A stretch of DNA of 64,000 nucleotides from Candidatus Latescibacterota bacterium. Lineage in GTDB: Bacteria > Latescibacterota > UBA2968. Shown here in pieces: positions 26,391-47,816 of this stretch. The stretch spans positions 2,368,001 through 2,432,000 of the forward strand of contig OZ242311.1 in NCBI GenBank assembly GCA_965207885.1. The letters run 5' to 3'. The notes under the pieces are model-generated. The model searched no databases. It was not told the origin of the DNA and worked only from the letters and a program-made list of their open reading frames with translations. Every line of letters starts with the position of its first letter. Position 1 is the first letter of the stretch. The translations under genes were made by a program, and so were the position numbers.

Positions 26391-28406
26391 TTAGTCTGCG
26401 TGGATATGGTGGCCGCTACCGGGGAACCAGATCGCATCCACGAGAATTGTCAGGGCGACTCCCAGCGCCCAGCCGACCAGGATGCCGATAAAAAACGGTC
26501 TGGACCGCCTGTAGAGCGCCGCGTCTCCGATCTTCATAAAGATCCATTTAAACGCCCAGGCCAGAAAGATGGAAAAGGTCATTCGGTAGCTGAAGTAGGT
26601 AGATGAAATCGCAAATCCAATCGGATGGATCGGCCAGCCCGGAAACCGGTACCGGAGGAACGTCATGACTGCCATAACCCCGGCGCCGATCCAGAAGAAC
26701 TGCAGCTTCTCCCAATCGGTCGGAAATGGCGATTGCATGTACACGACTACGTCGTTGAGGACCTTCGGCGCAGCGGAATTGATCTTCCAGGAGTTAAAGT
26801 TGTAGGCTCCGTGGGCATATCCCAGGTAAAGGGTTCCCCACACCGAGCAGAGCAGAGAAACAAATAGTGCCAGACCGGTGCAGACCAGAATTCCCTTGCG
26901 GGAACGTGCGGCCACATCCGCCACCTTCCCCACATGTGTCAGCACCGGCATGAACAGCCCCGTCCCACGGGCCACTAAAGAGTATGTGAAGGCCAGGGCA
27001 GTCAGGCTGGCCCCCGAGGTTGTCTCGGTCCCCAGTACATACAGCGTGGAATACTGCGCCGTCATGGGTGCTCGCACATAAGCCAGACCGGTCTCGACCA
27101 CGATTCTCGACACTCCAATGTATATGACGAGAGTAGAAACCGTCAACACCAGGGCCATCTTGTAGCTCATCCCTGCGCTGTGCAGCCATAAGAGAATGAA
27201 TACTATACCCAGGATAAATCCAAAAACGGCGGTCCGATAGGACATCATCTCGTCGCTGTCCTCGGTGAGTTGTGCATATCCGAAGGCACTGCGCACCATA
27301 TTCCTCAGGTGGTGCCGCGCCGTCCACAGCACCCAGAACACCATACACCAGAATGCCCCCCAGCACTGCCAGCCGGTGGCCGCACTGTAGGACGACCAGT
27401 ACGCTCCTTCCCCAGCGCTGTAGCCGATGCGGTTGAAGATGGAGGCCTCGACAATAAAGATCAGAAAGAAGAACCAGATGCTGAACAGGACCTCTAAGTT
27501 CGCAAAAAAACCGAACGCCATCGCAAAAAAGTGGATGTTCAGGTTTATACCTGGCGCCCCCGGGTAAAGAACGACGTTTCCCCCACCCAGGGGAATGGGC
27601 GGGAGGCCCGGGACGAGATAGGTCAGGATGTTCCAGCAGACGATCCCGAACGGAATCACTGCCCCGGCCCAGAACAGCTTTCCACGCATAAATTCCGGCT
27701 TGAAGCCAACTGCCCCAGATTTTGTCGCCATCTCGATTCCGACACTCACCAGGGGGTAGCCCAGCTTCTCGTGATGGATCCACTGCCTTCTCAATGCCAC
27801 CACGATGCACGCCGAAACCAGCGTTACCGCCGCGATGAAACAGACCCACCAAAATAGGGGGACCACCCACATTTCCCAGGGAATACGTTCCCCTGTTGGC
27901 AAACCCTCGAAAAACCACGTCATGGCGCCGGTGTGGTCAGATGGGGCCAGCCAGTCAGAGATGTAGTTGTGAAAATATGGCTCCCACCGGTTCTCTGGCG
28001 AGGCAAAGTAGTACGGAGAGGAAATGATCGCCAGCCAAAAGCCCGTCAGTTGCCATGTCGGCAACACGCTTCCGGCCATCACCATCGCCAGGATGATCAG
28101 CAGTTCGAAGGGCGAAAGCGGGCGCACAAAACCCAGACGACCCAGAACGACGTTCAAAATAACCAGGACCAGGAAGCACAGAAAGGCAATCAAAGGAAAA
28201 TGACTCAGGTTGAGATACGAGGAGCGAATCACGTACTCATCATAGGTCAGAAACAGACTGGCGAAGGCCGCGAAGAGAACGCCCAGAATCACCGATCTGG
28301 TTGTAATTCCCTCCTTCTTCGTGGGTGAGGACAGGTGTGCCTCATCTACGGCAGTCGATTCAATCGTCGCCCTGGGGGGAATAAAAACTGGTTCTCGGCT
28401 ATCCAT
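26391..28406 (-). CDS. polytopic membrane protein, DUF6785/DUF6784-type putative peptide (OPT-like) transporter
   Basis: Many TMs; RRQWIHHEKLGYPL, WPIHPIGF, RPFFIGILVG. Confidence 0.7.
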   Translation of the reverse strand: MDSREPVFIPPRATIESTAVDEAHLSSPTKKEGITTRSVILGVLFAAFASLFLTYDEYVIRSSYLNLSHFPLIAFLCFLVLVILNVVLGRLGFVRPLSPFELLIILAMVMAGSVLPTWQLTGFWLAIISSPYYFASPENRWEPYFHNYISDWLAPSDHTGAMTWFFEGLPTGERIPWEMWVVPLFWWVCFIAAVTLVSACIVVALRRQWIHHEKLGYPLVSVGIEMATKSGAVGFKPEFMRGKLFWAGAVIPFGIVCWNILTYLVPGLPPIPLGGGNVVLYPGAPGINLNIHFFAMAFGFFANLEVLFSIWFFFLIFIVEASIFNRIGYSAGEGAYWSSYSAATGWQCWGAFWCMVFWVLWTARHHLRNMVRSAFGYAQLTEDSDEMMSYRTAVFGFILGIVFILLWLHSAGMSYKMALVLTVSTLVIYIGVSRIVVETGLAYVRAPMTAQYSTLYVLGTETTSGASLTALAFTYSLVARGTGLFMPVLTHVGKVADVAARSRKGILVCTGLALFVSLLCSVWGTLYLGYAHGAYNFNSWKINSAAPKVLNDVVVYMQSPFPTDWEKLQFFWIGAGVMAVMTFLRYRFPGWPIHPIGFAISSTYFSYRMTFSIFLAWAFKWIFMKIGDAALYRRSRPFFIGILVGWALGVALTILVDAIWFPGSGHHIHAD

Positions 28407-31428: not shown

Positions 31429-32262
31429 TCAAACCTGCGGATACATCTTGTCCTCTAACGCATGCTCTGTCGGCAAGTAATCGCATGTCCCTCGGCCGCC
31501 ATCCACCAGGATAACCTCGCCGGTGATAAAGCGCGCAGATGGGGACGCCAAAAATACAACGATTCCGGCGACATCCTCCGGCTCTCCGATGTGCCCGAGG
31601 GCAACGCGCTCGGCCTGTGCCTTTTCAGCGCCGGGCGTGAGCGCATCGCCCCAAATGTCGGTCCGAATCGCACCGGGTGCCACGGCGTTGACTGTAATCC
31701 CATACTGCCCCAGATCCCGGGCACAACACCGGGTAAAGGCCTCCATCGCACCCTTGGAGGCGCTGTAGGCGGCTCTCGCAATCCAGCCCAGGCGGGCGTT
31801 GAGCGAACTGATATTGATGATCCGTCCACCGTCCCCAACATCGACCATAACCCGAGCCGCGATTTGCGTGCAGAGAAAGCACCCCCGGGCATTCACCGCA
31901 AAAATCCGCTCCCAATCGGCATCGGTTGTATCGAGAACGGATACGGCGACATCTATACCGGCGTTGTTGACCAGAATATCGATACCGCCAAAACGTTGAA
32001 CCGCTGCATGGACCATGGCCTCCACCGCTGTGCGATCCGACACATCGGCCCGGATCGCCATAGCCTGTCCTCCATCCCGCTCAATCTCGATCACAGCACT
32101 TTCGGCCGCCTGAGCATGGGCGGCGTAGTTGACCACCACCGCCGCACCCTGGCGCGCCAGTTCTCGGGAGATCGCCCGGCCGATTCCTCGTCCCCCGCCG
32201 GTCACCACGGCAACGCGATTTTCCATACCTCGAAGAGGGGATGGTTTTGTATCGTTCTCCAT
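31429..32262 (-). CDS. SDR family oxidoreductase
   Basis: TGGGRGIG, NNAG, YSASK. Confidence 0.93.
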   Translation of the reverse strand: MENDTKPSPLRGMENRVAVVTGGGRGIGRAISRELARQGAAVVVNYAAHAQAAESAVIEIERDGGQAMAIRADVSDRTAVEAMVHAAVQRFGGIDILVNNAGIDVAVSVLDTTDADWERIFAVNARGCFLCTQIAARVMVDVGDGGRIINISSLNARLGWIARAAYSASKGAMEAFTRCCARDLGQYGITVNAVAPGAIRTDIWGDALTPGAEKAQAERVALGHIGEPEDVAGIVVFLASPSARFITGEVILVDGGRGTCDYLPTEHALEDKMYPQV

Positions 32263-32301
32263 AATTCCGGCCTCCAGGACAATTTATGAAAAATCGTCAC
32301 C

Positions 32302-33498
32302 TCAAAGTTCCGCACTCGACGCTTCCCCATAGGGCAGTGGATAGAGCGGTTTCATCTCATCGTGTCGATCCGCAATCTGTGGGATAGAGATCGGTCGATG
32401 CGCCGCCTTCGACTCGTTGACCGCGACTGCTCCGGCACATGTGCGCGCCGCTTCATAGACATTGATCTCCGACATACAATCGTTCTCGATCGAGTGGATC
32501 AAGTCCATCCAACTGAAGAACTCCACACCGCCATGCCCTACCTTCCTGACCATATCCTGGGTGATCCACTCCGGTAGTGGAACCGGCGGCACCTCAATCG
32601 GACGCATCTCGTAAGGCCCGGTATAAGGCTTGGGTCCGGCGCCGTCCTCCACCAGACATCCGTAAAGCCCCGTACTGTCCGGGGGCGCAGGCAGATACCC
32701 CGTAGATTCGATCGTGCCCTTCGTACCCCACACCGATTTTGTAATTTCCTTGTAGGGACGCCTCGCTGCCTTTGAACACTGGACCCGTGCAATCGCCCCG
32801 GAGGCCGTCCGAAACAGAGCCACATCGTGGTCGTCCACGTTCCGGCTGGGCAGATTCTTGCGATTGCCGTAGGCAAAAACCTCCGTGAAGTCCTCTCCCA
32901 GAAACCACCGGGCCGTGTCCACAGCATAGATGCCGGCTCCGGCAGACACAGATTCCTGTGCCTTCACCCCGTAGCCCATCCGGAAACCCTCTTTTTTCAT
33001 GAGTCCGCCTCCGCCCTGCTGCCGAATATCCTGTAAATATTCGCAGATCACGTAATAGATTTCCCCCACCTGGCCATCGTCGATCAACTGCTTCATCTTC
33101 ACTGACTCCGGGATCCACCGGTCCGGGCAGTCCATCTGGACCTTCAGATGCTGGCGTTCGGCCATCGTGATAATTTTCCAGAGCCGTTCCATGGACTCGT
33201 TTTCCATCGGCGTCTCAACCATCACATGCTTGCCGGCATCCAGCGCTGCCAGCACCATCTGCCCGTGGATATGACAGGGCGAACAGATACACAGAATGTC
33301 CAGGTCCGTGTCCGAAAGCAAGTCCGCGTAATGCGTGGTTGTCTTGCCTATGTCCAGTTCTTTAGCCGTGTTCTGCAGCCGCTCCTCGTTCACATCACAG
33401 ATCACAGCGCACTCGGTCTGCTCAAGGTATTCGTGGGTTAGACGAACATGGCTTCTTCCGTGACCGAGCCCGACCACACCGACCTTGTAAGTCTTCAT
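32302..33498 (-). CDS. Gfo/Idh/MocA oxidoreductase, GH109-like
   Basis: VGLGHG, ETP, GHGG, INVYEAA. Confidence 0.85.
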   Translation of the reverse strand: MKTYKVGVVGLGHGRSHVRLTHEYLEQTECAVICDVNEERLQNTAKELDIGKTTTHYADLLSDTDLDILCICSPCHIHGQMVLAALDAGKHVMVETPMENESMERLWKIITMAERQHLKVQMDCPDRWIPESVKMKQLIDDGQVGEIYYVICEYLQDIRQQGGGGLMKKEGFRMGYGVKAQESVSAGAGIYAVDTARWFLGEDFTEVFAYGNRKNLPSRNVDDHDVALFRTASGAIARVQCSKAARRPYKEITKSVWGTKGTIESTGYLPAPPDSTGLYGCLVEDGAGPKPYTGPYEMRPIEVPPVPLPEWITQDMVRKVGHGGVEFFSWMDLIHSIENDCMSEINVYEAARTCAGAVAVNESKAAHRPISIPQIADRHDEMKPLYPLPYGEASSAEL

Positions 33499-33632
33499 TT
33501 CCAGCACCCCCACCTTTAAATGAATTCCTCAAAAAAAACTGGCGTCCCTTGGATATCCGTTTAATTCAAGAATACGATCAAGGACCACCAGAAAGAAATG
33601 AGGACAGAAATACGAGAATAGTCCGCAAAATC

Positions 33633-33670
33633 AACGCCGGGGATTTGGATCTCTCCATGCCCCCGGCGTT
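33633..33670 (-). terminator. hairpin downstream of the PorV-family gene
   Basis: AACGCCGGGG...CCCCGGCGTT. Confidence 0.5.
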
Positions 33671-33691
33671 AGGCATACCATTATAGACGCC

Positions 33692-34630
33692 TCAGAACGT
33701 CCCATTCACCGTGAATCTCAAAGGTGCGTTGAAGAATTTGCTATGGGTGTAAGCGATATCTACACTGAGCGATGCGGCACCGAAAGCCCGCTTGAGCCCG
33801 GCACCGACGCTGAAATCCTCGGCGTCGTAATTCCACTTGTATCCCCCCCTCAGTGCCAGTGTATTGGCCAACCAAAGTTCAGCACCCATGTGAACGCGTC
33901 CTTCGTAATCAATCGCAAACACGTTCTCTGCTGAAAGTGTCAGGTAAGTGGGATCTCCCACCTTCCCGATCACCTCCATGGCCCCGGCGATTGTGTAAAC
34001 CACCGGCATAAAAGAGCTCTCTGCGATAACGGTGTTGTCCTGCCCGAAGTTCTTCAGGGTCATCGCCAACCGGAAAGACTGGAAACCAGTGTAGAAAAGC
34101 GTACCGACGCTGGCATCAAAAGTCGTATTCGAATCTTCGAACAGAGACTCTTGAAGGTACCTGAAGTTTGCACCGAAAGAGAGCCTATCGGTGAACTGGT
34201 AGGCATAGGCAACACCGAACGCGATGTCGTCCCCCTCTACCATCTTGCCGGTGCCCATGGGTTCGAAAATAGTCGTCTCCTCAAATGGCTTCGTCCGGAA
34301 CGACACCATGCTGACCCCGAAGACCGAAGCACCTAAACGATAAGCCACGGCACCCGAGTAGAGTTTTGAATCGGCAAACCAGCGATTGTAAGAAAAGGTA
34401 TATGCAGCCCTCTCGATGTGGGTCAGACCAGCCGGATTCCAGAAGATGCTATTGATATCGTTAGAAATGGCCATATACGCAGATCCCATCGCCGCAGGGC
34501 GAGCCGATTGGCCAATCTTCACAAAGTTGAACCCGGTCGTACCCAGTTTCTTGAAGATGGCCTCTGCATCCACGGCCAGAAACGGCCCCATTAGTGCGGC
34601 CAAAGTGGCTATCAACAGACTGCGTCTCAT
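33692..34630 (-). CDS. PorV/PorQ-family (UPF0164-like) outer-membrane beta-barrel
   Basis: Signal peptide, ARPAAMGSA, SIFWNPAGL, LALRGGY, C-terminal F. Confidence 0.8.
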   Translation of the reverse strand: MRRSLLIATLAALMGPFLAVDAEAIFKKLGTTGFNFVKIGQSARPAAMGSAYMAISNDINSIFWNPAGLTHIERAAYTFSYNRWFADSKLYSGAVAYRLGASVFGVSMVSFRTKPFEETTIFEPMGTGKMVEGDDIAFGVAYAYQFTDRLSFGANFRYLQESLFEDSNTTFDASVGTLFYTGFQSFRLAMTLKNFGQDNTVIAESSFMPVVYTIAGAMEVIGKVGDPTYLTLSAENVFAIDYEGRVHMGAELWLANTLALRGGYKWNYDAEDFSVGAGLKRAFGAASLSVDIAYTHSKFFNAPLRFTVNGTF

Positions 34631-34658
34631 TTTTATGCCTCCTTTCATGGTCGCACGG

Positions 34659-36875
34659 TTATTTGACAATCATAAAAGTCCCTGTCTTCTTCTCGCCTTC
34701 GCTCCCCGGCATCAGCGACTCCACCACGAAGAAATACTTCCCCGTCGAGACCTTCGACGCGAAATTCAGTACCACCTGATTCCAACTCGTCTCTCCCCGA
34801 ATCGGGGACCTCGTCCGCACCGGGTTATCGACTACCGCGACCAGATCTCCAGAGACGGTAAAGATCGAGATCTTGCACCTTCTGGGCACATTCACAAACC
34901 GGATCTCTTCGCTACCGCCCGGGTAGCGGTGGATGTCGTCGAGTCTGAACGGGTTGGGTACCACAATCACCGGATCCTCGAAACGGTCTTTCTTATCGGA
35001 AGCCACCACAAATGGTATGCTTTGCAGGTGCGTCCTCGTCTCGGGCGCGCCGTGTCCGCTCTCCAGGGAAGGAATCGCCATCCCTGTACCGTTCCAGTCG
35101 GTGTGCCCAGTGTCGTAGCTTCGGACGGAGTACCAATAACTGAACCCCGCGAGCGAGGAGGCATCCTTGTAGCTGTGTGTGCCAGTCGAGAGGTCCACCA
35201 GAAGCTCCCAGGGGCCCATAGACGTGAGTTCCGACCGGTAGATCCGGTAGCCAGCTACATCCCGCGCCTCGGCGGTCCCCATATAGTCGGGGTCTTCGGC
35301 GGCCTCTGCGTCGGCAGACCAGGACAGCAGGTTGTTCCCGTCCTCGTCGCTTTCCACCGTGAATCTGATGTCGGGTGGCGCGTCAGGGATATCGTAGTTG
35401 TTGGCGTAGGCAAACCGGGCCCGATCCAGGTGCTGAGCCAGTGCCCGTTCGCCGTCGGACACCTGAGCCTGGGCACCCGGCTGCCTGCTCCACCCAAAAA
35501 TGTCCACCGTTTCTCCTGAGCTTGCAAATTCGGCTCCGGTGCCGGCCACCCAGGCCACCACGACCTTAGCTTTGTCGCCGGGTCCCAGATCGTAGGGACC
35601 ATAGGTCTGGGCAAAGCCCATGTTCATAAGCTCTGTGGGATTGTCCTGGGGGTGATTTGGCGAGATGGGGCGCGTCCCCTGCCCGGTCATCTCCAGGTAG
35701 ATCTCTTCGTCGGACATAGGATGCTCCGGCGTATCGATGTCGTCCAGGCTGCGGATTTGCCACCAGAAGGGGAAGGCTGGCTGGTCGGGATTCTTCGGTG
35801 CTACATAGACCTCGTCGTCCTGGGCGAATCCGTCGGTCGGATCGGCGTCTAACAGAGCCAGCCCGATATACTGAAATGCCCGGAGCTGCCCTTCTTTGAG
35901 AAGGCCGGAGTTTCGGACATTGCCCGGGGCCTCGGCCAGCCGGGCGGGCTCTCCCGTGTCATCGGCCTGGTCAAAGGGATAGTCGCCGTCATAGACGTAC
36001 TGGATCTTTTTTCCCCTCAGATCCGCGTGGCCATCGAAATTGGGCGCTTCGCTGTACTTGAACCAGTCGTCCTGCACGCGGGTGCTCACATCCTCCCAGC
36101 CACTGGTCCAGCCCTCCCACATGTGCCCTGCCCGGGAGACTCTGGGCAGATTGAAAAATGAAAGGTAGGTATCGTTCAACTGCTTTGTTCCGGTATTCTC
36201 CAGAATGACCTCTTGAATGATGAAGTCGTCGTAGTCCGGGTAGCCCCACGCCTTGGCCTTTCGAGTCACGACAATCCCGGTTTCGGTGCCCCACTGCGTA
36301 ATCAAGATTTCCTCGGGCTGGGTGTCGTTGGGAATGTACCGATTGTAGTCGAAGTTGTGGATCTCCGTCACATCGTTGACCACCGGCGGTGCTCCCGGCC
36401 AGTAGTTGGCCGTCACTGATCCAGTCGCCGGGGAGACCGTCCGCACTCCCAGGTCTTTCTCCGGACCGGCGGAGGCATCGTAGGTCATCGGCACGATATC
36501 CTCTGTGACGATCCGGGGGTTGGACATCGACACATTGTAGAAGCCGTTCTCGTCCTTTGTCAGCACATAGATGCCCTCTCCCTGGCTGGTGTGAGTCGAA
36601 CGGTCCGCAAAGTCGATGCTCTCCTTAACTCCCCAGTAGTCTTCAAAGTCTCCCTCCAAAATGGGAGCGCCGGGGTACATCAGGCCCGCGTCCCACAGCC
36701 TCGTCCAACTCCTGGTCATGCCCTCGGTCTTACCCTGGATGCCGTTGCTGCGATAGCCCGACCAGAGCAGCCCCCGGGTCAGGTTCCGCATCGGCGCAGC
36801 CTGGGCCCAAAGGCTACACGGCAGGAACAACAGCGACAGCACCACAGGCCAGAGGCCTATTCTCACTATTCGCAT
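34659..36875 (-). CDS. secreted protein with FN3-like region and C-terminal T9SS-CTD/FlgD-like Ig domain
   Basis: Signal peptide; GYRIYRS...YWYSVRSYD; VVPNPF...ISIFTVSGDLV...WN...STGKYFFVV...TFMIVK. Confidence 0.75.
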   Translation of the reverse strand: MRIVRIGLWPVVLSLLFLPCSLWAQAAPMRNLTRGLLWSGYRSNGIQGKTEGMTRSWTRLWDAGLMYPGAPILEGDFEDYWGVKESIDFADRSTHTSQGEGIYVLTKDENGFYNVSMSNPRIVTEDIVPMTYDASAGPEKDLGVRTVSPATGSVTANYWPGAPPVVNDVTEIHNFDYNRYIPNDTQPEEILITQWGTETGIVVTRKAKAWGYPDYDDFIIQEVILENTGTKQLNDTYLSFFNLPRVSRAGHMWEGWTSGWEDVSTRVQDDWFKYSEAPNFDGHADLRGKKIQYVYDGDYPFDQADDTGEPARLAEAPGNVRNSGLLKEGQLRAFQYIGLALLDADPTDGFAQDDEVYVAPKNPDQPAFPFWWQIRSLDDIDTPEHPMSDEEIYLEMTGQGTRPISPNHPQDNPTELMNMGFAQTYGPYDLGPGDKAKVVVAWVAGTGAEFASSGETVDIFGWSRQPGAQAQVSDGERALAQHLDRARFAYANNYDIPDAPPDIRFTVESDEDGNNLLSWSADAEAAEDPDYMGTAEARDVAGYRIYRSELTSMGPWELLVDLSTGTHSYKDASSLAGFSYWYSVRSYDTGHTDWNGTGMAIPSLESGHGAPETRTHLQSIPFVVASDKKDRFEDPVIVVPNPFRLDDIHRYPGGSEEIRFVNVPRRCKISIFTVSGDLVAVVDNPVRTRSPIRGETSWNQVVLNFASKVSTGKYFFVVESLMPGSEGEKKTGTFMIVK

Positions 36876-36969
36876 CTTGAAACCTCCTTGTGATAATAAG
36901 GAGCGCCTGGGATTGAGCCACAGCCTGTGTTCAATCCCAGACCCTGAGATATAAAACAGAGTTGACCTG

Positions 36970-39900
36970 TCAGAAGGATACCATCACCCCCAGTTCGATC
37001 TCCCTTGGAAACCCGGCATATCGACTCAGTTCTCCGGTATCGCCGAACTGTTTGTACTTGCCGCTGTCGGGTCTTGGCCGATCCAGACCGTTTTTCCACC
37101 AGTCCACATCCGGCCTGGGCTGTAGATCGCGCTGGTTAAACAGGTTCCTGACGTTGAAATAGAGTGTAGGGCGCACCTGGTTGCGAAGCTGGAATCGCTT
37201 CACAAAGGCCAGGTCGGTCCGGGTATGCATAGGTCCGAACCACCACTTCGGTGGTTCGCCAGGTAGTGCGAACCGCCTGGCCCTCCCCTCCTGCATCCGA
37301 TAGACCATCGTGACGCTGATGTCGCCCCACACCGGTCCATAGTCCGTCGGCGAGTGATACACAAACACCACCGATCCGAAACCCGGTCGTTCGGTCCCAA
37401 AGGTCCCCTGCGCTGTGTTCCGTCCCCGGGGGTTTACGTTAAACTGTTTGTAGGACCACATGCCTGGCCAATCCTCCATTTCTTTAATCTCGGATTCCTT
37501 CGTTGGGTCGTAGTCCGCCGCGGTGCCATTCTGGATGGCCCGGAGCCGTTCGTTGGCCCGATGGCCGAATTCCTGGATCTCATCGGCGGTCAGCAGCACC
37601 GGTACTTCCGCTCCGGAATCGCTGCTGTTCACCTGCCCGTCGCCGTTGGTGTCCCGGGAGTGCGTCACATAGTAGTTGGATCCGGTGGCGACCCAGTTCG
37701 AGTCGGGCACAAAGTAGGTCCGCCACCACCCGGACTGGCGTGCGGCCGACACCCACTGCTTATTGTACGAAACCAGGAATGAGAACCCGTGGCTGAGATT
37801 CTTCCTCAGCGAGAGTTCGATGCCCCGGACATCCTCATAGGAGTTATTCCTCCAGTCAGCCCCACCGCGCTGGGGAGCCTGCTTCTGCGGGTCCCACCAG
37901 TAGCTATTGCCGTAGAAGAACTGATCCGTCCCACTCTTGTAGAAGACCGTCAGAGAACTGATGTAGTCCCCGACAAAGTTCCAGTCGGTCCCGACCTCGA
38001 AGCTGGTGGTCGTTTCATACTTAATGTGGTTCCAGAATCCGGACCAGTCCCGCGAGTCCGATTGGTTTCCGACCTCTGTCGGGTCGATCTGTCCGTTGTT
38101 GTTGAAATCCGCTGCCCGGGCTCGACTGACCCATCCATACTGAGCGATGTACCATGTGGAGGGCAACTGGCGGAACACGCCAAAGGAGTAGCGGATCGTA
38201 GCTCTGTCGGTGATCGGGTGTGAGACCCCAACCCGGGGGCTCCAGGCCTGCAAGGCCTTGGCATCCACCAGGGGGATGAGCTGTTGGCGCGTCCACGATT
38301 TGGTCATCGGCGCCATCGACCAGAGTCCGTGTTCGCCCTGAGGCACCTGGGTGCCCCAATCCAGTCGGTCATAGCGAGCGCCCACGTTCAGGACCAGCCC
38401 GTGAAACTCCATCTTGTCCTGGATGTACCAGGACGACTGGATAGGTTCCCACGGCGTATCCCTGGTATATGGCTTCCCGGCTACGCGCAGGGCAAAACTC
38501 GTCATACTTCGCCAGCGTTCCCATACGGTCAGCACCTTGTCGAACGCGACCTCGAACCCACTCTTGACGAAGTGACCCTTTGTGATCTGGCTGGAGAAAT
38601 CGAGCTTGAAGTTGACCCGTTCTCGCTTCGTAAGCTGATACTCGGTTCTCGTCGAGGGAGCGGCCGTGAAGTAGCCGTCCGCGTCCCGGCGAATGTCCTC
38701 GGTAAGGCCTTCTCCGTATTGATCTACCGGTACGTTGGTGGTGTCCTGGTTATCTCGGAAAAAGGAAAGCTTCGCCTCGTAAAATGTCTTGGGCGTCAGG
38801 ATGTGGGTCAGCGATACATAGACCAGGTCGTTTTTATACTTGACCTGCCCGGCCCCACTCCCCTCAGGGAGAAAGATGTCGCGGCCCAACTGCCTTCTGG
38901 CGCCTGAGCCTCCCCAGTAGCTTCCTGAACGACCGTAGATGCCCCCCACGCCCACCTTGAACTTTGAACGAGCGATCCCGGTCAGTTTGTAGGAGGTCTC
39001 GATGTTGCCAGGAGAGGCGACCCAACCCGATTTTCGATCCGGGTAGAGGTAGAAGCCGCGCTGTTTGCCCTCTGGAAATATCGCCGCCAACCCCCGATAT
39101 CTGGCCGAGGTAAAAAAGGAGGCATTTTCGACCACCGGTCCAGACAGAGTCCCCTCTATGCGGTGGCCGATCACGCCGGTGTAGTCGATCCGCTCGTGCA
39201 CCCTCCGTCCGGTCACCGGGTCGGTTTCGCCCGTCCAGTTCGAATCGTTCCACTTCATCTTATCTTCATAATAGGGACTGTCATAGACGTTGCTGCCCCA
39301 GTGCTTTTTCCCGGCTGGATTCAACAGGTAATCCAGGTTGCCGTGGAAGTCCCTGCTCCCCTCCTTTGTCACAATGTTGACAACACCCGCCTGGGCGTTG
39401 CCGTACTCGGCCTCCATCCCGCCTGTAACCACGGCGAGTTCCTGAACAGCACTGGAGTTGACGCTCTGAAAATTTCGGCTGGCGTGCGACCGCCGCTCCA
39501 CATTGACTGCAGACATGGGTACTCCATCGACGTAGTAAACCACGTCACTGCTCCCGGAGCCAGATGACGACGTGTCTCCACCCCGGATTGAAGTGTCTCC
39601 GTCCAGACCGACCCCGGCCAGGAGCTCAAGTACCTGTTCGGTGTCCTTGACGATGGGAGCGACCTCCTCGACGTTGGAGTTGTCCAGGATGTATTTGGTG
39701 GTTGTCCTGTCCGGCTCCACTGGGGGCCGCTCAGCAACGACCACGATTGCAGCCATATCCAGGGTGGTCTCCTTCAGGGCAAAATCTACAGTCGTCGTAA
39801 AATCAGCGATGGCCTGGACGTCCGTCTTAGAAATCTGGTCGTAGCCGATCATGGACGCTGTCAGCGTGTAGGTCCCCGGATTCACCAGCAAGATCAAGTA

Positions 39901-40101
39901 GTCCCCATCTGGCCCCGTGGTGGTGCCCTGTGAGGTGCCCTCGATGATCACATTTGCCCCGGGCAACGCCTGGCCGTTGCTGTCAACGATCTGACCTTTA
40001 ATCTTTCCTGTGGTTCCGGCAACCACCTGCTCGGAGGTCGCCGAGAACAGCAGCAGAAAGGCGAGCAACCCTACAATCCAGAAAACACGATCACTCTTCA
40101 T
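36970..40101 (-). CDS. TonB-dependent receptor with N-terminal carboxypeptidase-regulatory-like domain
   Basis: GKIKG...LPGANV, plug TGGMEAEYGNAQAGVVNIVTK, SPRVGVSHPI, C-terminal GVMVSF. Confidence 0.9.
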   Translation of the reverse strand: MKSDRVFWIVGLLAFLLLFSATSEQVVAGTTGKIKGQIVDSNGQALPGANVIIEGTSQGTTTGPDGDYLILLVNPGTYTLTASMIGYDQISKTDVQAIADFTTTVDFALKETTLDMAAIVVVAERPPVEPDRTTTKYILDNSNVEEVAPIVKDTEQVLELLAGVGLDGDTSIRGGDTSSSGSGSSDVVYYVDGVPMSAVNVERRSHASRNFQSVNSSAVQELAVVTGGMEAEYGNAQAGVVNIVTKEGSRDFHGNLDYLLNPAGKKHWGSNVYDSPYYEDKMKWNDSNWTGETDPVTGRRVHERIDYTGVIGHRIEGTLSGPVVENASFFTSARYRGLAAIFPEGKQRGFYLYPDRKSGWVASPGNIETSYKLTGIARSKFKVGVGGIYGRSGSYWGGSGARRQLGRDIFLPEGSGAGQVKYKNDLVYVSLTHILTPKTFYEAKLSFFRDNQDTTNVPVDQYGEGLTEDIRRDADGYFTAAPSTRTEYQLTKRERVNFKLDFSSQITKGHFVKSGFEVAFDKVLTVWERWRSMTSFALRVAGKPYTRDTPWEPIQSSWYIQDKMEFHGLVLNVGARYDRLDWGTQVPQGEHGLWSMAPMTKSWTRQQLIPLVDAKALQAWSPRVGVSHPITDRATIRYSFGVFRQLPSTWYIAQYGWVSRARAADFNNNGQIDPTEVGNQSDSRDWSGFWNHIKYETTTSFEVGTDWNFVGDYISSLTVFYKSGTDQFFYGNSYWWDPQKQAPQRGGADWRNNSYEDVRGIELSLRKNLSHGFSFLVSYNKQWVSAARQSGWWRTYFVPDSNWVATGSNYYVTHSRDTNGDGQVNSSDSGAEVPVLLTADEIQEFGHRANERLRAIQNGTAADYDPTKESEIKEMEDWPGMWSYKQFNVNPRGRNTAQGTFGTERPGFGSVVFVYHSPTDYGPVWGDISVTMVYRMQEGRARRFALPGEPPKWWFGPMHTRTDLAFVKRFQLRNQVRPTLYFNVRNLFNQRDLQPRPDVDWWKNGLDRPRPDSGKYKQFGDTGELSRYAGFPREIELGVMVSF

Positions 40102-40131
40102 ATTCTTCTCCTTTTATTAACAGGTTGCGGA

Positions 40132-40827
40132 TCACATATAAAACTTCACTCCAGCCCCGATGTCGAACAAGTGAAACGGATGGGTCTTTTTCACACCCCA
40201 GTTCAGGAAGGGTCTGAGTTCCCCAACGATCACATTGTAACTCACACGCAGGTCCAGGGCAGCCTTCGGTCCCAGGAAGATCTGCATCCCAGCCCCTCCG
40301 CTTACACCCAGCGCTGTCCGCGTATCGTCGATCGCCTCCAGGAGCAGGGTCTGATCCAGCGTAGCTCCCCCTTGTTCGGGAAAGATGAGCCCGCTCACCT
40401 TAGAATGGTAGTTGTGGAATCCGGCTCCAACGGTAAGATAGGGAACGCTTCCTTCGCCTTCGAACTTCTTATTCTTCAGGGCAAAAAGCCAGTTGACCGT
40501 CAGGCTGTTAAAGGTCATATCGGACTTGGCCTGTGGACTTGTGTAGTCCCTTCCATCCTTGAACCGAAACGTCCGCTCTTCGAGACTGCCGCCCGCAAAC
40601 TTCGAGTAATAGTACTCTACTTCCACGATCCGTGCCGGACTGGTTACAAAGTGCGCAGCAGCCCCAAGCTTGAATCCCTCGGTGTACATATCCCTGAAGT
40701 TAAACAGCGGCGAATAAAGCTCGGCGAACACGCCGAACCCCCCTCTGTGGCCCTCTTCCTGAGCCACAGCAAAAGCCGTGGGCGACAACACCCACAAAAG
40801 AATCCATAAACCCATGATCTTTCTCAT
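40132..40827 (-). CDS. outer-membrane beta-barrel protein (OmpA-like TM domain)
   Basis: Signal peptide, PYLTVGAG, alternating beta strands, GVKFYM terminus. Confidence 0.75.
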   Translation of the reverse strand: MRKIMGLWILLWVLSPTAFAVAQEEGHRGGFGVFAELYSPLFNFRDMYTEGFKLGAAAHFVTSPARIVEVEYYYSKFAGGSLEERTFRFKDGRDYTSPQAKSDMTFNSLTVNWLFALKNKKFEGEGSVPYLTVGAGFHNYHSKVSGLIFPEQGGATLDQTLLLEAIDDTRTALGVSGGAGMQIFLGPKAALDLRVSYNVIVGELRPFLNWGVKKTHPFHLFDIGAGVKFYM

Positions 40828-40876
40828 AAACACCTCCTTGAAGATACGCAGTCATTTTTCGATCAACCCACTCGTC

Positions 40877-41995
40877 TCAGATGATCTCCCTTTCCGGACC
40901 GAGCCGATTGTAAAACTGGGGGATATAGACCTTCCGGCCACCCTCGTTGATCGAGATTAGCGAACTGATTGCCGCAGCGCAGCTCTTTGCCGCTTCGTAA
41001 ACGTTGATAAATGGCAGCCTATCGTCTAAAATCGCATCTACGAAGTCGCGGCAGTTGTGGTACGTACCGCCGCCGTGACCGGTTCTTTTGGCAACTTCGG
41101 CATCCAGTTCGAGCCCTACCAACTCCAAGGGCTCAATCTCTCCGGGAAGCCCACCCTCCTCCTGTGCATGTGCAATACCGAGTACTCCATTACGCCGATC
41201 TCCCTCAACGGCCGCCCTGGTGCCGTATAGCGACTTGTAGAGGTTGCAGCCGGGCCAGGCCATCGCCTTGCAACAGGCAATCTTTACCGTCACCCCACCG
41301 GTCGTCCTGAAAATTGCTGTCTCCCAGTCGTTGACTGTCCGATATGGCGAGTAAATGCGGTTTCCCAATCCGACCACCTCGGTGAAGTCCTGCCCGATGA
41401 TCCAGCGGATGTCGTCGATCGCGTGAATGCCGCCGCCAGAAGAGATACTCTCCTGCGTCGTCGTACCGAACCCGTCCCGCCAGGTCTTTTTCCCATCTCT
41501 TACAAACAGGTACACCAGGCTGTGTGTATATTCAGACTCGGCGTAGCATACCTCGCCGATTGTGCCATCTTTCACCAGCCGCCTCAGGGTGATCGTGCGT
41601 GGATCCCACCGGCTATTCTGCTCCATGGCCAGCTTCAGGCCTGTTCGTTCTACCGCCTTGACGATCTCCATGCACTGGTGCAGCTTGTCGGCATTCTCCA
41701 CCATCGGAATGGTCGTCAGGATGTGCTTTCCCGCCTCCAGGGCCGCCAGACACTCATCTCCGTGGCGAAATCCCGGCGTGCCCGTGCATATGAAGTCCAC
41801 GTCCTGGTCGGCCAGCAGGTCCCCGTAGTCTGTATAGACTCTGGGCACCCCGTATTCCCTGGCGAACTGGTTCGCCTTTTCCTCGTCTATATCGCACACC
41901 GCAGCGACATCCACTTCGTCGATGTAGTCGTGGAATGTCCTCAGATGCGACTCCCCGAATCCAAGCCCCACGATCCCGGCCTTCAAGGTAGCCAT
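40877..41995 (-). CDS. Gfo/Idh/MocA oxidoreductase, GH109-like
   Basis: VGLGFG, TIP (EKP position), GHGG, INVYEAA. Confidence 0.85.
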   Translation of the reverse strand: MATLKAGIVGLGFGESHLRTFHDYIDEVDVAAVCDIDEEKANQFAREYGVPRVYTDYGDLLADQDVDFICTGTPGFRHGDECLAALEAGKHILTTIPMVENADKLHQCMEIVKAVERTGLKLAMEQNSRWDPRTITLRRLVKDGTIGEVCYAESEYTHSLVYLFVRDGKKTWRDGFGTTTQESISSGGGIHAIDDIRWIIGQDFTEVVGLGNRIYSPYRTVNDWETAIFRTTGGVTVKIACCKAMAWPGCNLYKSLYGTRAAVEGDRRNGVLGIAHAQEEGGLPGEIEPLELVGLELDAEVAKRTGHGGGTYHNCRDFVDAILDDRLPFINVYEAAKSCAAAISSLISINEGGRKVYIPQFYNRLGPEREII

Positions 41996-42105
41996 CGATA
42001 CCCTCCGACAGATAACAATCCTAAGTCACGCAAATGGAAACATTGCAACAAATGACCCCCAAGCAATACGATTTCTTTCTAAAACGCACCAACTGTTCTA
42101 TTCAT

Positions 42106-42150
42106 TTAGTGAAACTTCACTAATTTTTATGATTAGTTAAGATTCACTAA
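42106..42150. promoter_or_regulatory. tandem palindromic operator pair
   Basis: TTAGTGAA-AC-TTCACTAA (perfect) and TTAGTTAA-GA-TTCACTAA, 27-bp period. Confidence 0.6.
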
Positions 42151-42192
42151 TTTTTGCTTGACATAAAAATCTATCTTTCTGATATTGAAAGG

Positions 42193-42277
42193 CGCAATGA
42201 GAGAAATTATAATATTTTCTCACATTGCTCTGGCCATTAGCTCCTCCGCGCAAGGTTGGTAGCTAATGGCTTTTTTT
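42193..42277 (+). ncRNA. candidate cis-antisense sRNA opposite the operon
   Basis: TTGACA-N17-GATATT (42158-42186), hairpin 42194-42228, terminator GCCATTAGCT...AGCTAATGGC-T7. Confidence 0.5.
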
Positions 42278-42341
42278 ATGCGCCTTGCGAATAATACGCT
42301 TCAACTCTTTTCTCTTATACCCGATTTCAGATCGACTGGAC

Positions 42342-43034
42342 TTACTGCGTGCGCTTTACCCATTGCCTCATGCCGGTGTCGAAGTGATCCCACACTGCCT
42401 GCCGCATCCCGTTTGGATCACGCGCCTTCAGAGCGAGGAAGATCCGCTCGTGGTTCTGGAAGTGTTCCAGGTCAATGCTCTCCCAATCCCACCACTCGCG
42501 GTGCGCCGTAACGAAAAATTCACTCAGTACTCGTCCAAGAGCCTGAGTCGCCTGGTTCCCCGTTGCTTCGTAGGTCGCAAAGTGAAACGCCCAGTCGTGC
42601 GTATAAAACTCGACAGGACGTTCTAACGCCTCCCGCATCGCTTCCAGGTGTTGCCCCATCACTTCCAGCTGATCTTCAGTTACGCGCTCTATTACCATCT
42701 CCACAATTCCAATATCCACCGCCCGCCGCAATTCGTACATCTCTATAATCGTCTTTTTATTTATGGATGGAACAAAGCTCAGATACTTAAACAAAGCCTG
42801 AGGATCGAACTCTTTGACACTGATCCCATGCTTGGGACGAGCTTCCAGAACGCCTATTGCCTCTAAGATCTTGACCGCTTCTCGAACGGAGGCACGACTC
42901 ACACCAAACGCTTCTGCCATCTCTCGCTCTGTGGCCAACCTGTCTCCGGGCATCAATCCATTCTGCAAAATATGGTTCTTGATTGCACCGATGATCCTCT
43001 TACTCAGATTTTCTTTTTCAATGCTATTAAACAA
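42342..43034 (-). CDS. FadR/GntR-family transcriptional regulator
   Basis: PGDRLATEREMAEAFGVSRASVREA wHTH plus FCD domain; probable TTG start after GGAGA. Confidence 0.9.
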   Translation of the reverse strand: MFNSIEKENLSKRIIGAIKNHILQNGLMPGDRLATEREMAEAFGVSRASVREAVKILEAIGVLEARPKHGISVKEFDPQALFKYLSFVPSINKKTIIEMYELRRAVDIGIVEMVIERVTEDQLEVMGQHLEAMREALERPVEFYTHDWAFHFATYEATGNQATQALGRVLSEFFVTAHREWWDWESIDLEHFQNHERIFLALKARDPNGMRQAVWDHFDTGMRQWVKRTQ

Positions 43035-43103
43035 ATTCCATTCTCCCGGCCTTTCATTGTACAGATATTGGTTTACAAAACCAGCCATATCATTATATGG
43101 TAT

Positions 43104-43154
43104 AATGGTCAGACCATTGGTAAAAATAATACACTTATTCACATCATCTGTCAA
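43104..43154 (-). promoter_or_regulatory. promoter plus FadR-type operator
   Basis: Minus TTGACA-N17-TATTAT (43154-43126); palindrome AATGGTC-A-GACCATT (43104-43118) at +1. Confidence 0.8.
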
Positions 43155-44968: not shown

Positions 44969-47497
44969 CTAATGCTCGTTCGAGACACGCTTGTTTTTCG
45001 ACCGTCTTCCATAGTGGAAGCCGATCTCGCGTGTGGCCGTCTCACCACTCACCAGGTCCGTGATTGTCACTTCCAGGACGTTGATACCGGGTTTGGTCTT
45101 GCTCAAATCCAGCTCTACATACTCATTTTCACTCGATTCCGATCCGACCTGCTCGTAGGTCACTGAGACCTGAGGTTTCTTGCTCCTGAGGAGGGATCGG
45201 AACCCAGAGGCAACCATTCCGACAATCCCCACCGAACCTTCGGGGCTGAACCGAACCAGATATTGCACCTTGTAGCGGGTCTGACCAAAAGCGTCTTTAT
45301 TCAGGTTGTAGATCTCGAAATAGGCATAGACCTTCTGATCCGATTTGTAGGCACGGGAGGGCATCGGCACCACCCAGATATTGCCCTTCCGAAATCTGTT
45401 GTTCGATCCTTTATCGCCGATGGCGGAAGCGAGCTCAATGTCGCTCATCTGGAGCGTCATCGACCGGTAGTCCTCAATCTCCAGCGACTGTTTATAGACC
45501 CCGACGTGTCCTGCGATCAGGTCCTTGAGGTGAACCTGAAGTTCGTATTTTCCCGGTGGCACCTGGACCTGAAGCACATCGGGGACAAACGTCCCTTTTG
45601 CCCAGTCGGCTTCTCCGGTATTTCGATAGGAAAACGTATCTGTCGTTCGATAGATGTTGGTGTGGCCTTCGTCCGCCAGTGCCAGTGCAGCCTGCACATG
45701 GATCATCGAACCCGTGTCCTTTTCGACGAATTCTAATTGTTTGGGTGAAATGCCGTAATAGACTTCGAGCGTGGTCTGCCCATCGGGGCCTCGGAAGTCG
45801 GCCAGGTCGTAGTAGAAGTGGAGAGCAGAGCCTCGGAGGCTGGGACGGTAATAGTCCGGGGTTGCGACAACAGTCCTTTCAAAGACGAGTTTGGGCGCAT
45901 ATTCGAGCATTCGCGCCGTGTATTTCAACTGTCTTTGCCCGGCAGGTATCGGGGGAATCGGGGCAAAGTCGTAGGTGCGGTTGCCCAGTTCGTCGGTAAA
46001 GGTAAACTCGATGCCGTTCTGGATCTGTGTATAAGTCCAGGTCTCCCAGGGAACTGTATTGACCTCGTTGTCGATCGTGAGGGGCGTATAGCCCTGGAAA
46101 TTGAGCCGAGTCTTTATATCCAGGATATCATCGGAAAGGCTCCCGAGTTCATCTTCTTGTGGAGTGGGAATATTCTGCAACATAAGGCGATCCAGATCCG
46201 AATCCGTCGATCCCGAAAGCGCTTCAACATTCTCATCATCCAGGATGGGATCTCCAACGGCTGTCCCTTCAGCCATCTGACGAGGGTCAACGGTGATGTC
46301 ATCGGACAGAGCGTCACGGCGCGTCCGGACCGGGAAGACCGGTCCGGTAAAAGTCAAATAGTTGGCCTCGGGTCCATACATATCCACCGCCATCCGGGTG
46401 CGCACGGCCTCAACTTCGGCATTCACACTGAGTTGCCTCAGGTCGGACCGCGACCTGAAGTCGGGCTCCCCATAGCGGATATAGACCTCTCCCCGCCGGT
46501 CCCAGGGATGGGGTCCCGCAGCGAAGAAGGTGCGGGCATACCACACCCGGCGGTAGTGCTCGATGATACGCTCGTTGATAGGGGTCAGGATATCGGAATC
46601 CCGACGCATCCAGAACTGCTCCAGATAGGCCTGGCGCTTCGCTGCTTCAGCGATAGCCCGATAATCGTCGAGTTCTTTCCTGGAGGCCACGAGTGAGATA
46701 TCCGTATAGATCTGGCGTTCCCCTTCGTTCAGGTTCTGTAGATAGCGTTCGAAGTACTCCAGGGCTGATTCGAAGCGCTCATGGAAGAAATAGCCCTGGG
46801 CCACCAGGGGCAGGAGCCGGAACTCCTGGGGATTGGCCTCAAGGTAAGGGATGAGGTAGGTGTTAATCTTGTCATATTGCCTGGCCCGCACGCAGGAAAG
46901 CCCGAATGCGTAGAGGCCATCCGGGTCATTGGACTCCAGTTTAACGTATTTTAAATAGTATCCAATCGCCTTTTGGTGATCCCCCCGAAAGTGTTCGTAG
47001 GCCTCTCCGAGAAGCAAGTAGGCCGGGGCGTAAGCCGAATCGATCTTGGCCGCCCGCTTGCCCTCGCCCACAGCACGTCGGAAATTGTAGAAGGCCGCCA
47101 GTCCTTTGCCAGGCATCTTGACGTGGGTCAGCCCCAAACCCACGCGGGCATTGGGGAGGTTGGGATCGAGTTCCCTGGCCGCTGCGAAGGCATCTTTGGC
47201 TACCTCGAAGTCTTCCTTCTTGAGGGCAGCGTAGCCGAGCCGGATCTGAAGGGCGGCGTCTTTCGGGTATGCCTCGGCCAGGCGGGCAAATGTATCAACG
47301 GCCTTGCCCAACTCGTTCGCTCGCATCTGTTGCTCTCCCAGGGCGATCATAGAGTCCCGCTCGGCTTTGGAGAGGACTTGTGGTGCCGCCTCGGACGGTA
47401 GATCCTGGGCAGAGATGGCAAGTGTGAGGATCCAGATTGACGTCCAGGGGACCCAAAAAGAGAAAGTAAAACGCCGAAATCCGACAGAAACTCCCAT
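44969..47497 (-). CDS. TPR + GWxTD-domain protein
   Basis: Signal peptide, TPRs, FWMRRD...EHYRRV...PWDRRGEVYIRYGEPD; start by SD GGAGG. Confidence 0.78.
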   Translation of the reverse strand: MGVSVGFRRFTFSFWVPWTSIWILTLAISAQDLPSEAAPQVLSKAERDSMIALGEQQMRANELGKAVDTFARLAEAYPKDAALQIRLGYAALKKEDFEVAKDAFAAARELDPNLPNARVGLGLTHVKMPGKGLAAFYNFRRAVGEGKRAAKIDSAYAPAYLLLGEAYEHFRGDHQKAIGYYLKYVKLESNDPDGLYAFGLSCVRARQYDKINTYLIPYLEANPQEFRLLPLVAQGYFFHERFESALEYFERYLQNLNEGERQIYTDISLVASRKELDDYRAIAEAAKRQAYLEQFWMRRDSDILTPINERIIEHYRRVWYARTFFAAGPHPWDRRGEVYIRYGEPDFRSRSDLRQLSVNAEVEAVRTRMAVDMYGPEANYLTFTGPVFPVRTRRDALSDDITVDPRQMAEGTAVGDPILDDENVEALSGSTDSDLDRLMLQNIPTPQEDELGSLSDDILDIKTRLNFQGYTPLTIDNEVNTVPWETWTYTQIQNGIEFTFTDELGNRTYDFAPIPPIPAGQRQLKYTARMLEYAPKLVFERTVVATPDYYRPSLRGSALHFYYDLADFRGPDGQTTLEVYYGISPKQLEFVEKDTGSMIHVQAALALADEGHTNIYRTTDTFSYRNTGEADWAKGTFVPDVLQVQVPPGKYELQVHLKDLIAGHVGVYKQSLEIEDYRSMTLQMSDIELASAIGDKGSNNRFRKGNIWVVPMPSRAYKSDQKVYAYFEIYNLNKDAFGQTRYKVQYLVRFSPEGSVGIVGMVASGFRSLLRSKKPQVSVTYEQVGSESSENEYVELDLSKTKPGINVLEVTITDLVSGETATREIGFHYGRRSKNKRVSNEH

Positions 47498-47816
47498 TGT
47501 ACACCTCCACTCTCTACACCGGTGGGATCTTGACTGTGAAGATGGATCCTTTTCCAACTGCCATCATATTTCCAGGGCTTCAGAATAATATAAGGTTTGC
47601 TAACAGGGGAAGTCAAGCGGCAGGTACAATCCGGTCTCGTTATATTGCTGTGTCCTCGTGAAGTCCTGGATGAAAAAACTCCTTTTGAAATTTTTTAAAA
47701 AAAGCTAACTTAAACCAAAGACTGTCAGGCCGGGTTTCCCAGGTACACTCTTGACGCGAAATCTATTCAGTTGGAGACGAGGCCCACCATATAAGTAATC
47801 GTTTAACTGGACATTA

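Follow-up and report, generated by a model that had tools for sequence, protein, structure and literature searches.

We describe here a cassette of four genes in a 64,000-nt stretch of the genome of Candidatus Latescibacterota bacterium (assembly GCA_965207885.1, contig OZ242311.1, positions 2,368,001-2,432,000 of the forward strand), referred to below as the window. Four co-directional open reading frames (ORFs) adjoin on its minus strand and encode, in the order of transcription, a small outer membrane protein (OMP), a TonB-dependent receptor, a 738-residue protein of an unnamed family that we call X738, and a PorV-like barrel, the gaps between them being 30, 94 and 10 nt. An earlier sequence-only reading of this DNA had spoken of four adjacent exported proteins, and this description stands, as signal-peptide-like N-termini are found on all four by sequence inspection. 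The features are as follows, with the grounds for each assignment in brackets.

40132..40833, minus strand: small OMP barrel, 233 aa (Pfam OMP_b-brl)
36970..40101, minus strand: TonB-dependent receptor, 1043 aa (CarboxypepD_reg and Plug)
34659..36875, minus strand: X738, 738 aa, exported, unnamed family (AlphaFold2 model; no Pfam or NCBIfam family)
35391..36797, minus strand: X738 N-terminal domain, residues 27-495 (DSSP, Foldseek)
35106..35387, minus strand: X738 FN3-like spacer, residues 497-590 (strand pattern, Foldseek FN3 matches)
34662..34967, minus strand: X738 C-terminal domain (CTD), residues 637-738, a 7-strand beta-sandwich (hhalign, TIGR04183, complex model)
33692..34648, minus strand: PorV/PorQ-family barrel, 318 aa from the ATG at 34648 (NF033709, AlphaFold2 model)

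The longest ORF for the PorV-like gene runs over 33692-34669 (325 aa), and the ATG at 34648 lies just past the X738 stop. The OMP ORF begins with GTG; position 40827, where the sequence-only reading had let the cassette begin, is an ATG two codons inside it. The quartet belongs to a series of eleven same-strand genes that extends over 41995-26391 and in which neighbours are spaced by -58 to 178 nt. Scans of 26000-43500 with consensus patterns gave 14 promoters (9.6+/-2.9 in shuffled sequence) and 11 terminators (14.7+/-4.5 in shuffled sequence), neither above chance, and it is thus only spacing and strand that argue for an operon. At the protein level the window is about 97% identical to the Candidatus Latescibacterota metagenome-assembled genome (MAG) chromosome OZ241986.1 (L001).

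Conservation and spread of the cassette

Hidden Markov models (HMMs) that we built from the window proteins were run on 74 related loci. These loci derive from the best 80 of 239 matches, and all cassette counts given here thus describe the closer relatives; neighbour counts rest on 90 distinct X738 genes, each 600 aa or longer. Nearly all loci that have room for it keep the order OMP, TonB-dependent receptor, X738, PorV-like gene on a single strand, and where the sequence-only reading had asked after the conservation of a triplet, it is in fact a quartet that is strongly conserved. Over all loci, the receptor gene lies directly upstream of X738 in 58 of the 81 cases with room, or in 61 of 81 when L003, L004 and L024 are counted, in which an over-long ORF start masked the adjacency; the PorV-like gene lies directly downstream of X738 in 68/86, and the OMP gene upstream of the receptor in 49 of the 50 cassettes with room. 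Within Latescibacterota, the PorV-like gene follows X738 in 47/47 cases, the OMP gene precedes the receptor in 40/40, and the receptor precedes X738 in 40/42, both misses being artefacts of ORF starts. Cassettes are carried by Latescibacterota, Fidelibacterota (Marinimicrobia), Calditrichota, KSB1 and MAGs labelled Gemmatimonadota, and in a single genome, OZ244960.1, nine non-overlapping loci between them contain at least 10 X738 genes.

Over 52 cassettes, the four proteins agree in their pairwise distances with correlations of 0.95-0.98, and among paralogues within two genomes with correlations of 0.63-0.86, which argues that the cassette duplicates as a block; such correlations speak for co-inheritance and not for contact. 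The four genes might still be neighbours without any shared function. No experiment links the genes, and the promoter and terminator scans described above would fit such an explanation; however, five phylum-level labels and many paralogues share the gene order, the strand and the tight spacing, and we regard mere adjacency as highly improbable.

Twenty X738 genes have no TonB-dependent receptor beside them: 16 satellites, one member of a tandem pair at a contig start (L029), the orphans L034 and L060, and L055, a locus that holds 167 N. The satellites occur in Fidelibacterota, Calditrichota, KSB1 or unlabelled loci, at 0.4-4 kb downstream of a cassette, and in a quick tree they form lineage-specific sister clades of the cassette copies. 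Their CTD is conserved; examples are L048 12437-14707, L040 12425-14719, L028 9926-12463 and 12663-15161 and L035 9962-12472, among others. They recall the extra surface glycan-binding proteins of polysaccharide utilization loci (PULs).

A few cassettes appear to be interrupted. In L003 (9770-11983) the X738 ORF ends 234 nt early, and in L018 (12198-13183) the PorV-like gene is split into ORFs of 203 and 127 aa; the two interruptions occur in two near-identical MAGs and could be assembly errors or real decay. The contig of L052 (CAYPWN010000107.1) is binned as a Poseidoniales archaeon, probably a binning error, and several cassette contigs (L024, L025, L044 and L058; CAYRZX01...) are labelled 'Gemmatimonas sp.'.

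X738 and its C-terminal domain

X738 as a full protein matches no Pfam or NCBIfam family, and a PDB sequence search with its profile gave 0 matches. Its own family is large, a profile search returning 5733, 2378 and 295 clusters (at 50% identity) at E<=1e-3, 1e-10 and 1e-30; every named member listed is labelled 'hypothetical protein', and some members are labelled Gemmatimonadota by NCBI. Pfam and NCBIfam scans of 33 close and 65 distant relatives and of 29 full-length copies from the loci found no family for the N-terminal part, and in an Atlas search with residues 27-496 the nearest clusters (30/30) are likewise without a Pfam family. The AlphaFold2 model (pLDDT 85.8, pTM 0.88), read with DSSP, gives an architecture of a signal peptide, a large mostly-beta domain, an FN3-like domain, a linker and a terminal 7-strand sandwich. 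FN3 structures occur among the Foldseek matches, and one distant relative gives a weak Pfam fn3 match. The signal peptide is of the signal peptidase I type, with a ...LWA/QA site and no conserved lipobox; a lipobox pattern matched 1 of 33 family members, and there within the h-region. The sequence-only reading was thus right that the protein lacks a lipobox, and a non-lipoprotein export route is needed. X738 also falls outside SusD/RagB, having no lipobox cysteine, no SusD-like family match and a model that is almost all beta.

The large N-terminal domain, which we propose to be the substrate-facing part, is where an enzymatic role has to be considered. The best Foldseek matches are GH94, GH116 and other glycoside hydrolases and phosphorylases (E ~1e-6), at a query-normalized TM-score (TMq) of only 0.21-0.25. 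On account of this low TMq and the almost helix-free model, we read these matches as a shared beta-sandwich and make no enzyme assignment. A GH94/GH116-type enzyme was rejected on the same grounds, together with the lack of a helical catalytic domain and of a sequence family, and X738 is not a recognizable hydrolase. It might instead belong to a new family of surface or secreted enzymes, for instance glycan- or glycoconjugate-cleaving, which would act in the manner of SusG and have its own PorV-like carrier, while the receptor imports the fragments. Invariant acidic residues (E188, D216, D217, D269, D296, D306) in the N-terminal domain, a DYDDFIIxE motif, conservation of this domain along its whole length, and the nearest folds, GH94, GH116 and a GH174 fucanase (E ~1e-5), would all suit an enzyme. 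On the other hand, TMq reaches only 0.20-0.25, the nearly all-beta model contains no helical catalytic domain, no Pfam, NCBIfam or PDB-sequence match appears in X738 or in its 33 close, 65 distant and 29 locus relatives, and the acidic clusters could equally be calcium sites. An enzyme of this kind is thus an unlikely explanation, albeit one to be taken seriously.

The extreme C-terminus of X738 forms a 7-strand Ig-like sandwich, with strands at residues 637-640, 657-661, 667-673, 678-684, 695-699, 712-720 and 729-736 of the AlphaFold2 model. Seven strands also define the fold of type IX secretion system (T9SS) CTDs in the available text of PMC10994853 and PMC10202324. When 32 X738 tails were aligned by hhalign with 16 canonical Por_Secre_tail CTDs, which came from genes in the related loci, the probability was 96.7% (E 3.3e-10, 63 columns). 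This profile-to-profile comparison is, in our view, the decisive evidence that the X738 tail family is homologous to bona fide type-A CTDs of the T9SS. Other comparisons point the same way at lower scores: TIGR04183 matches 21/32 X738 CTDs at E<=0.1 (best 7.8e-5, all sub-threshold), the PorZ model 12/32 (best 1.7e-8) and the PorU model 7/32, and in the Atlas the clusters nearest to residues 625-738 are those of T9SS sorting domains (scores 0.95-0.96). Sub-threshold matches to CHU_C and Por_Secre_tail are found in 10/33 and 2/33 members, respectively, and the CHU_C cut-off is reached by 1 of the 65 distant relatives. The tail of the window's own X738 stays below the type-A cut-offs (PF18962/TIGR04183) and the type-B cut-off (PF13585 CHU_C) alike. 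Of the full-length proteins, 4/29 match the PorZ model, at 16-31 bits against a cut-off of 260; these matches span positions 663-757 of 757, that is, the CTD of that model only, and X738 was rejected as a PorZ homologue on this ground.

The outer-membrane barrels and predicted docking

The barrel encoded directly after X738 belongs to the PorV/PorQ family, as the sequence-only reading had stated: it scores 167 bits against NCBIfam NF033709 (cut-off 90), a model matched by 23/23 cassette barrels. It lies below the equivalog cut-offs within that family (PorQ NF033711, 73.9 vs 220; PorV NF033710, 65.7 vs 250; PorV2, 41.4 vs 325), a pattern of scores that is common to all 23 cassette barrels, reaches only 15.8 bits against the NCBIfam BamG model and has a weak Pfam Toluene_X match. 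The AlphaFold2 model (pLDDT 84.5) shows 14 strands and a helical N-terminal segment, a FadL-type barrel that is closest to PorV; the best folds are Flavobacterium johnsoniae PorV (8gl6_F and 6h3i_F, TM 0.72), followed by FadL/TodX/TbuX-type channels at 0.53-0.62, and PorV is the sole PDB sequence match (8.6e-25).

The complex of the barrel (residues 31-318) with the X738 CTD (residues 625-738) was modelled with an alignment for each partner. The interface score ipSAE was 0.90 in 3/3 runs and 0.00 for the best control, with contact agreement of at least 86% and partner pLDDT of at least 75; the mark of 0.90 is reached by 116/157 solved complexes and by 2/215 mismatched pairs. Contacted barrel residues are 90-94, 117-137, 167-174, 207-215, 247-248, 274-277 and 305-306, which are the seven extracellular loops according to the strand map of the AlphaFold2 model, together with N-terminal residues 35-45. 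The X738 CTD is thus predicted to be a docking element on the extracellular loops of the PorV-like barrel, the interface that the sequence-only reading had asked for, although the result may reflect likeness to 8gl6. That reading was also correct in stating that PorV binds CTDs, and the substrate-binding side of PorV in the solved (trapped) translocon is the same extracellular side, according to the available text of PMC10994853.

Two other roles for the barrel have to be weighed against these results. It might be a channel of FadL type for a hydrophobic substrate or product, with X738 periplasmic or unrelated to it. FadL/TodX/TbuX-type channels are indeed the next-best folds, the weak Toluene_X match points in the same direction, and genes for ceramidase-like proteins, glycerophosphodiester phosphodiesterases (GDPD) and esterases flank Fidelibacterota cassettes. 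However, the barrel's fold is clearly nearer to PorV, which is also its sole match by sequence, the CTD is predicted to sit on the extracellular loops with controls scoring zero, and a T9SS-homologous CTD would serve no purpose on a periplasmic X738, so that a channel is very unlikely. Alternatively, the barrel may be a transient shuttle, in which case X738 would be released or linked to lipopolysaccharide and the receptor merely co-expressed, with no stable complex formed. It is canonical PorV that takes type-A cargo from the translocon onwards, as described in the parts of PMC10994853 that were available; the X738 CTD is type-A-like, and the satellite copies have no barrel of their own. What speaks against a shuttle is that a general carrier would hardly account for one barrel gene per cassette, kept in 47/47 Latescibacterota copies, that the barrel fails to reach the PorV equivalog cut-off and scores a little closer to PorQ, and that the strongest NCBIfam CTD matches are PorZ and PorU, the two cargos known to retain their CTDs. 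We consider this explanation quite unlikely.

The 1043-aa receptor has a CarboxypepD_reg domain (71 bits, residues 34-121) and a Plug domain (PF07715, 33.1 bits against a cut-off of 23.9, residues 151-240); its large barrel is divergent and is not matched by the Pfam barrel model. Both domains are present in 21/21 cassette receptors, and the Pfam barrel model matches 4/21. The order is signal peptide, CarboxypepD_reg, a conserved VVVAERP stretch (about residues 118-126), which we take to be TonB-box-like, plug and barrel. In a PDB profile search only the plug and N-terminal domains match, the plug aligning to FepA, Cir and BtuB. The protein is thus a TonB-dependent receptor by its plug and the large beta-barrel that follows, the VVVAERP stretch being the sole ground for a TonB box. 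Membership of the SusC family was ruled out, as TIGR04056 (SusC/RagA) gives 57.4 bits against a cut-off of 368, over residues 33-123 only, although the receptor has its parts in the same order as that family. The 233-aa protein encoded by the first gene scores 28.7 bits against Pfam OMP_b-brl, exactly its cut-off, and 16/20 of its cassette homologues match this model; a PDB sequence search with the OMP profile returned a single match, to a designed lectin over 48 residues, which we take as noise. We propose that this small OMP is a constant fourth subunit.

A candidate uptake module and its surroundings

We propose that the four genes form one outer-membrane nutrient-uptake module, in which a surface-tethered X738 serves the transporter, a reading that we see as evenly poised between right and wrong. 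The TonB-dependent transporter would import a substrate, probably carbohydrate-derived. X738 would be exported by Sec and then cross the outer membrane as T9SS-type cargo, to be kept at the surface by its CTD, which would stay uncleaved and sit on the extracellular loops of the dedicated PorV/PorQ-family barrel, much as PorZ is held on PorQ. Its beta-sandwich domain, carried on the FN3 spacer, would capture or present substrate for the transporter, a role like that of SusD or a surface glycan-binding protein made from entirely different parts, and the small OMP would complete the assembly. What was observed is how the genes are ordered and how far this order is conserved, to which families and folds the proteins belong, and the CTD homology; the CTD-barrel interface is a prediction, and we infer the surface exposure of X738, its substrate binding and its cooperation with the transporter. 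The picture drawn by the sequence-only reading, a lid held on the surface by a cognate barrel, is thus partly supported. More tentatively, the cassette may be the SusCD equivalent of the non-Bacteroidota phyla of the FCB (Fibrobacteres-Chlorobi-Bacteroidetes) group, with a T9SS-cargo lid docked permanently on a private barrel that packs against the transporter.

Several points weigh against the tethered module. First of all, the 16 satellites and few orphans exist without a receptor or PorV-like gene of their own. Second, a PorV-CTD complex has been solved (8gl6), and the high score of the complex model may thus reflect likeness and not binding by this copy; moreover, barrel residues at the interface are only slightly more conserved than those of the strands (0.435 vs 0.411). 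Third, the N-terminal domain of X738 is fairly conserved among paralogues, with a mean identity of 37.6% compared with 44.1% for the CTD, and its invariant acidic residues would suit an enzyme too; the differences in conservation between the domains are small and decide nothing. Fourth, the tail of the window's X738 reaches no curated cut-off, its best Pfam match being CHU_C at E 0.054 and no NCBIfam family appearing at E<=0.1, so that the T9SS-CTD-like Ig tail proposed in the sequence-only reading stands at the level of family homology (hhalign) and fails at that of curated cut-offs. Finally, Pfam and NCBIfam scans found no T9SS core gene among the proteins of the 64-kb window, and an HMM of canonical CTDs, built from other phyla only, found none in about 45 Latescibacterota loci or the window. 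Our literature search found no paper linking Latescibacteria with type IX secretion, and one source (PMC11285876), in its available text, goes no further than saying that other FCB phyla may have T9SS, without listing Latescibacterota.

The same HMM found 20 ORFs in the loci as a whole. The Fidelibacterota, Calditrichota and KSB1 loci encode small proteins that end in a canonical Por_Secre_tail or FlgD_ig tail, either upstream of the OMP gene or between the OMP and receptor genes; these organisms at least make T9SS-type cargo. Examples are L048 2715-3698 and 68-1873, L040 1043-2032, L035 91-1707, L026 36-1406 and L028 74-1321; the N-terminal parts of these tailed proteins gave no family match.

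The proposed arrangement can be compared with four known systems. The SusC/SusD (RagA/RagB) pairs are alike in having a transporter of about 1000 aa with a CarboxypepD_reg-type domain before the plug, an exported partner encoded immediately after it, many paralogues per genome, and copies embedded among catabolic enzymes, regulators and inner-membrane transporters. The fold of SusD is helical and TPR-like. X738, the putative lid here, is on the other hand an all-beta non-lipoprotein with a T9SS-type CTD, the PorV-like barrel and small OMP are constant extra parts, and the receptor fails the SusC/RagA model. Second, in Porphyromonas gingivalis, PorU and PorZ retain their CTDs and stay on PorV and PorQ, according to the available text of PMC10202324. 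Here too a CTD-retaining cargo would be bound to a barrel of the same NCBIfam family, the best match of the X738 CTDs is to the CTD part of the PorZ model, and docking is predicted on extracellular loops. PorZ-PorQ or PorU-PorV, neither of which the sequence-only reading had mentioned, is a closer precedent than PorV alone for a permanently held CTD protein. The differences are that neither PorZ nor PorU resembles X738 in its N-terminal part, that the barrel reaches neither equivalog cut-off, that the pair is encoded in many copies beside a TonB receptor and outside Bacteroidota, and that its function would be nutrient capture and not cargo processing.

Third, in SprB-SprF-type systems, genes for type-B cargo and for the cognate PorP/SprF-like barrels are adjacent. 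A dedicated barrel accompanies surface-held cargo there as well (PMC10994853, PMC10202324), and type-B cargo stays on PorP/SprF-like barrels (PMC10202324), as far as the available portions of these papers go. Weak CHU_C (type-B) matches in 10/33 X738 members recall these systems; the barrel here, on the other hand, is of the PorV/PorQ family, with a weak PorP/SprF match in 1/23, and the CTD aligns better with type A. Finally, BamG, a FadL-like 14-strand barrel, packs against the larger BamA barrel, over which its extracellular loops hold the surface protein BamH, as described in the accessible part of PMC12578637; this is the geometry that we propose for the PorV-like barrel, the receptor and X738. 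BamH, however, is a lipoprotein, and what is wedged into BamG is its N-terminus and not a CTD; the BamG model scores low on the barrel here, and barrel-barrel contact is a proposal.

The arrangement thus joins two established principles, SusCD-type uptake and PorZ-PorQ-type tethering, and it is not categorically new for that reason; the combination is new. Our literature searches, which left subscription papers largely outside their coverage, found no description of this cassette, nor did a term search of the available text of the Caldithrix genome paper. SusC/SusD pairs serve as a handle for finding and studying glycan-utilization loci. To our knowledge they are confined to Bacteroidota, and we know of no such marker of uptake loci for other FCB phyla, several of which are abundant in oceans, sediments and soils and mostly uncultured. 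The cassette is a four-gene module common to at least five lineages, with at least 10 copies in one genome, built around an unnamed family of thousands. Should the tethering model hold, there would be a second means of placing a partner protein next to a TonB-dependent transporter, the role of PorV-like barrels and T9SS signals would reach beyond secretion to the assembly of transporters, and substrate-uptake loci in these phyla would gain a practical marker. Should the cassette be the SusCD equivalent, T9SS would serve to build nutrient-uptake machines, and the pair of X738 and PorV-like barrel would be a signature of 'PULs' in Latescibacterota, Fidelibacterota, Calditrichota, KSB1 and Gemmatimonadota.

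The surroundings of the cassette are catabolic and resemble a PUL. In the window, it is flanked by two GFO/IDH/MocA oxidoreductases, a short-chain dehydrogenase/reductase, an M20 peptidase, a PhyH-type dioxygenase, an RraA-like aldolase and a CocE/NonD hydrolase, as well as by the three features below.

26391..28406, minus strand: DUF6785+DUF6784 multi-pass membrane protein, 671 aa (Pfam, 374 and 74 bits)
42342..43154, minus strand: GntR/FCD-family regulator, upstream of the gene string (Pfam GntR and FCD)
44969..47557, minus strand: TPR and GWxTD-domain protein, 862 aa (Pfam/NCBIfam)

A wider scan covered 127 flanking ORFs around 15 other cassettes. Degradative genes near these include sulfatases, formylglycine-generating enzyme (FGE), heparinase II/III-like, beta-helix, BNR, GHL10 and ceramidase-like proteins, GDPD and esterases; SSF or MFS transporters are also present, with PhyH and GWxTD/TPR proteins recurring. 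Enolase-superfamily and GFO/IDH/MocA enzymes are part of this catabolic context. The GntR/FCD protein is, from its position, a candidate local regulator.

The 671-aa DUF6785+DUF6784 protein has about 10-12 hydrophobic segments and may be the inner-membrane permease of the system. Homologues of about 660 aa are found near the cassette in 8/9 Latescibacterota loci scanned, often directly after the PorV-like gene; in the scanned Fidelibacterota, Calditrichota and KSB1 loci they were not found, and SSF or MFS transporters are present instead. Copies lie at L008 14667-16652, L022 14022-16004, L030 13329-15326 and 19914-21935, L031 15899-17881, L057 13428-15392 and 19262-21448, L059 13444-15468, L068 13246-15234 and 18105-20093, and L073 3888-5876. 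GWxTD or TPR+GWxTD proteins stand by other cassettes at L008 13228-14643, L031 13408-14895 and L065 3473-5938, and long TPR proteins at L057 15415-17892 and L073 5873-8362. The literature searched held no mention of DUF6785, DUF6784 or GWxTD.

Elsewhere in the window, a second TonB-dependent receptor of ordinary size, 791 aa (54908-57283, plus strand), has CarboxypepD_reg, Plug and a Pfam-recognized barrel, and stands without X738, PorV-like or OMP neighbours. On the minus strand, 15372-20775 encodes two FG-GAP/ASPIC(UnbV) proteins, one of them fused to TPR repeats, and a separate TPR protein; this cluster adjoins an ABC sugar transporter (20806-25292) and an enolase-superfamily enzyme. A parA-parB pair lies at 52980-54636 (minus strand), and a partial match to an IS1-type transposase at 1833-2672 (plus strand). 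The sign of the GC skew changes near 12 kb and at 44-48 kb, tracking the switch of the coding strand.

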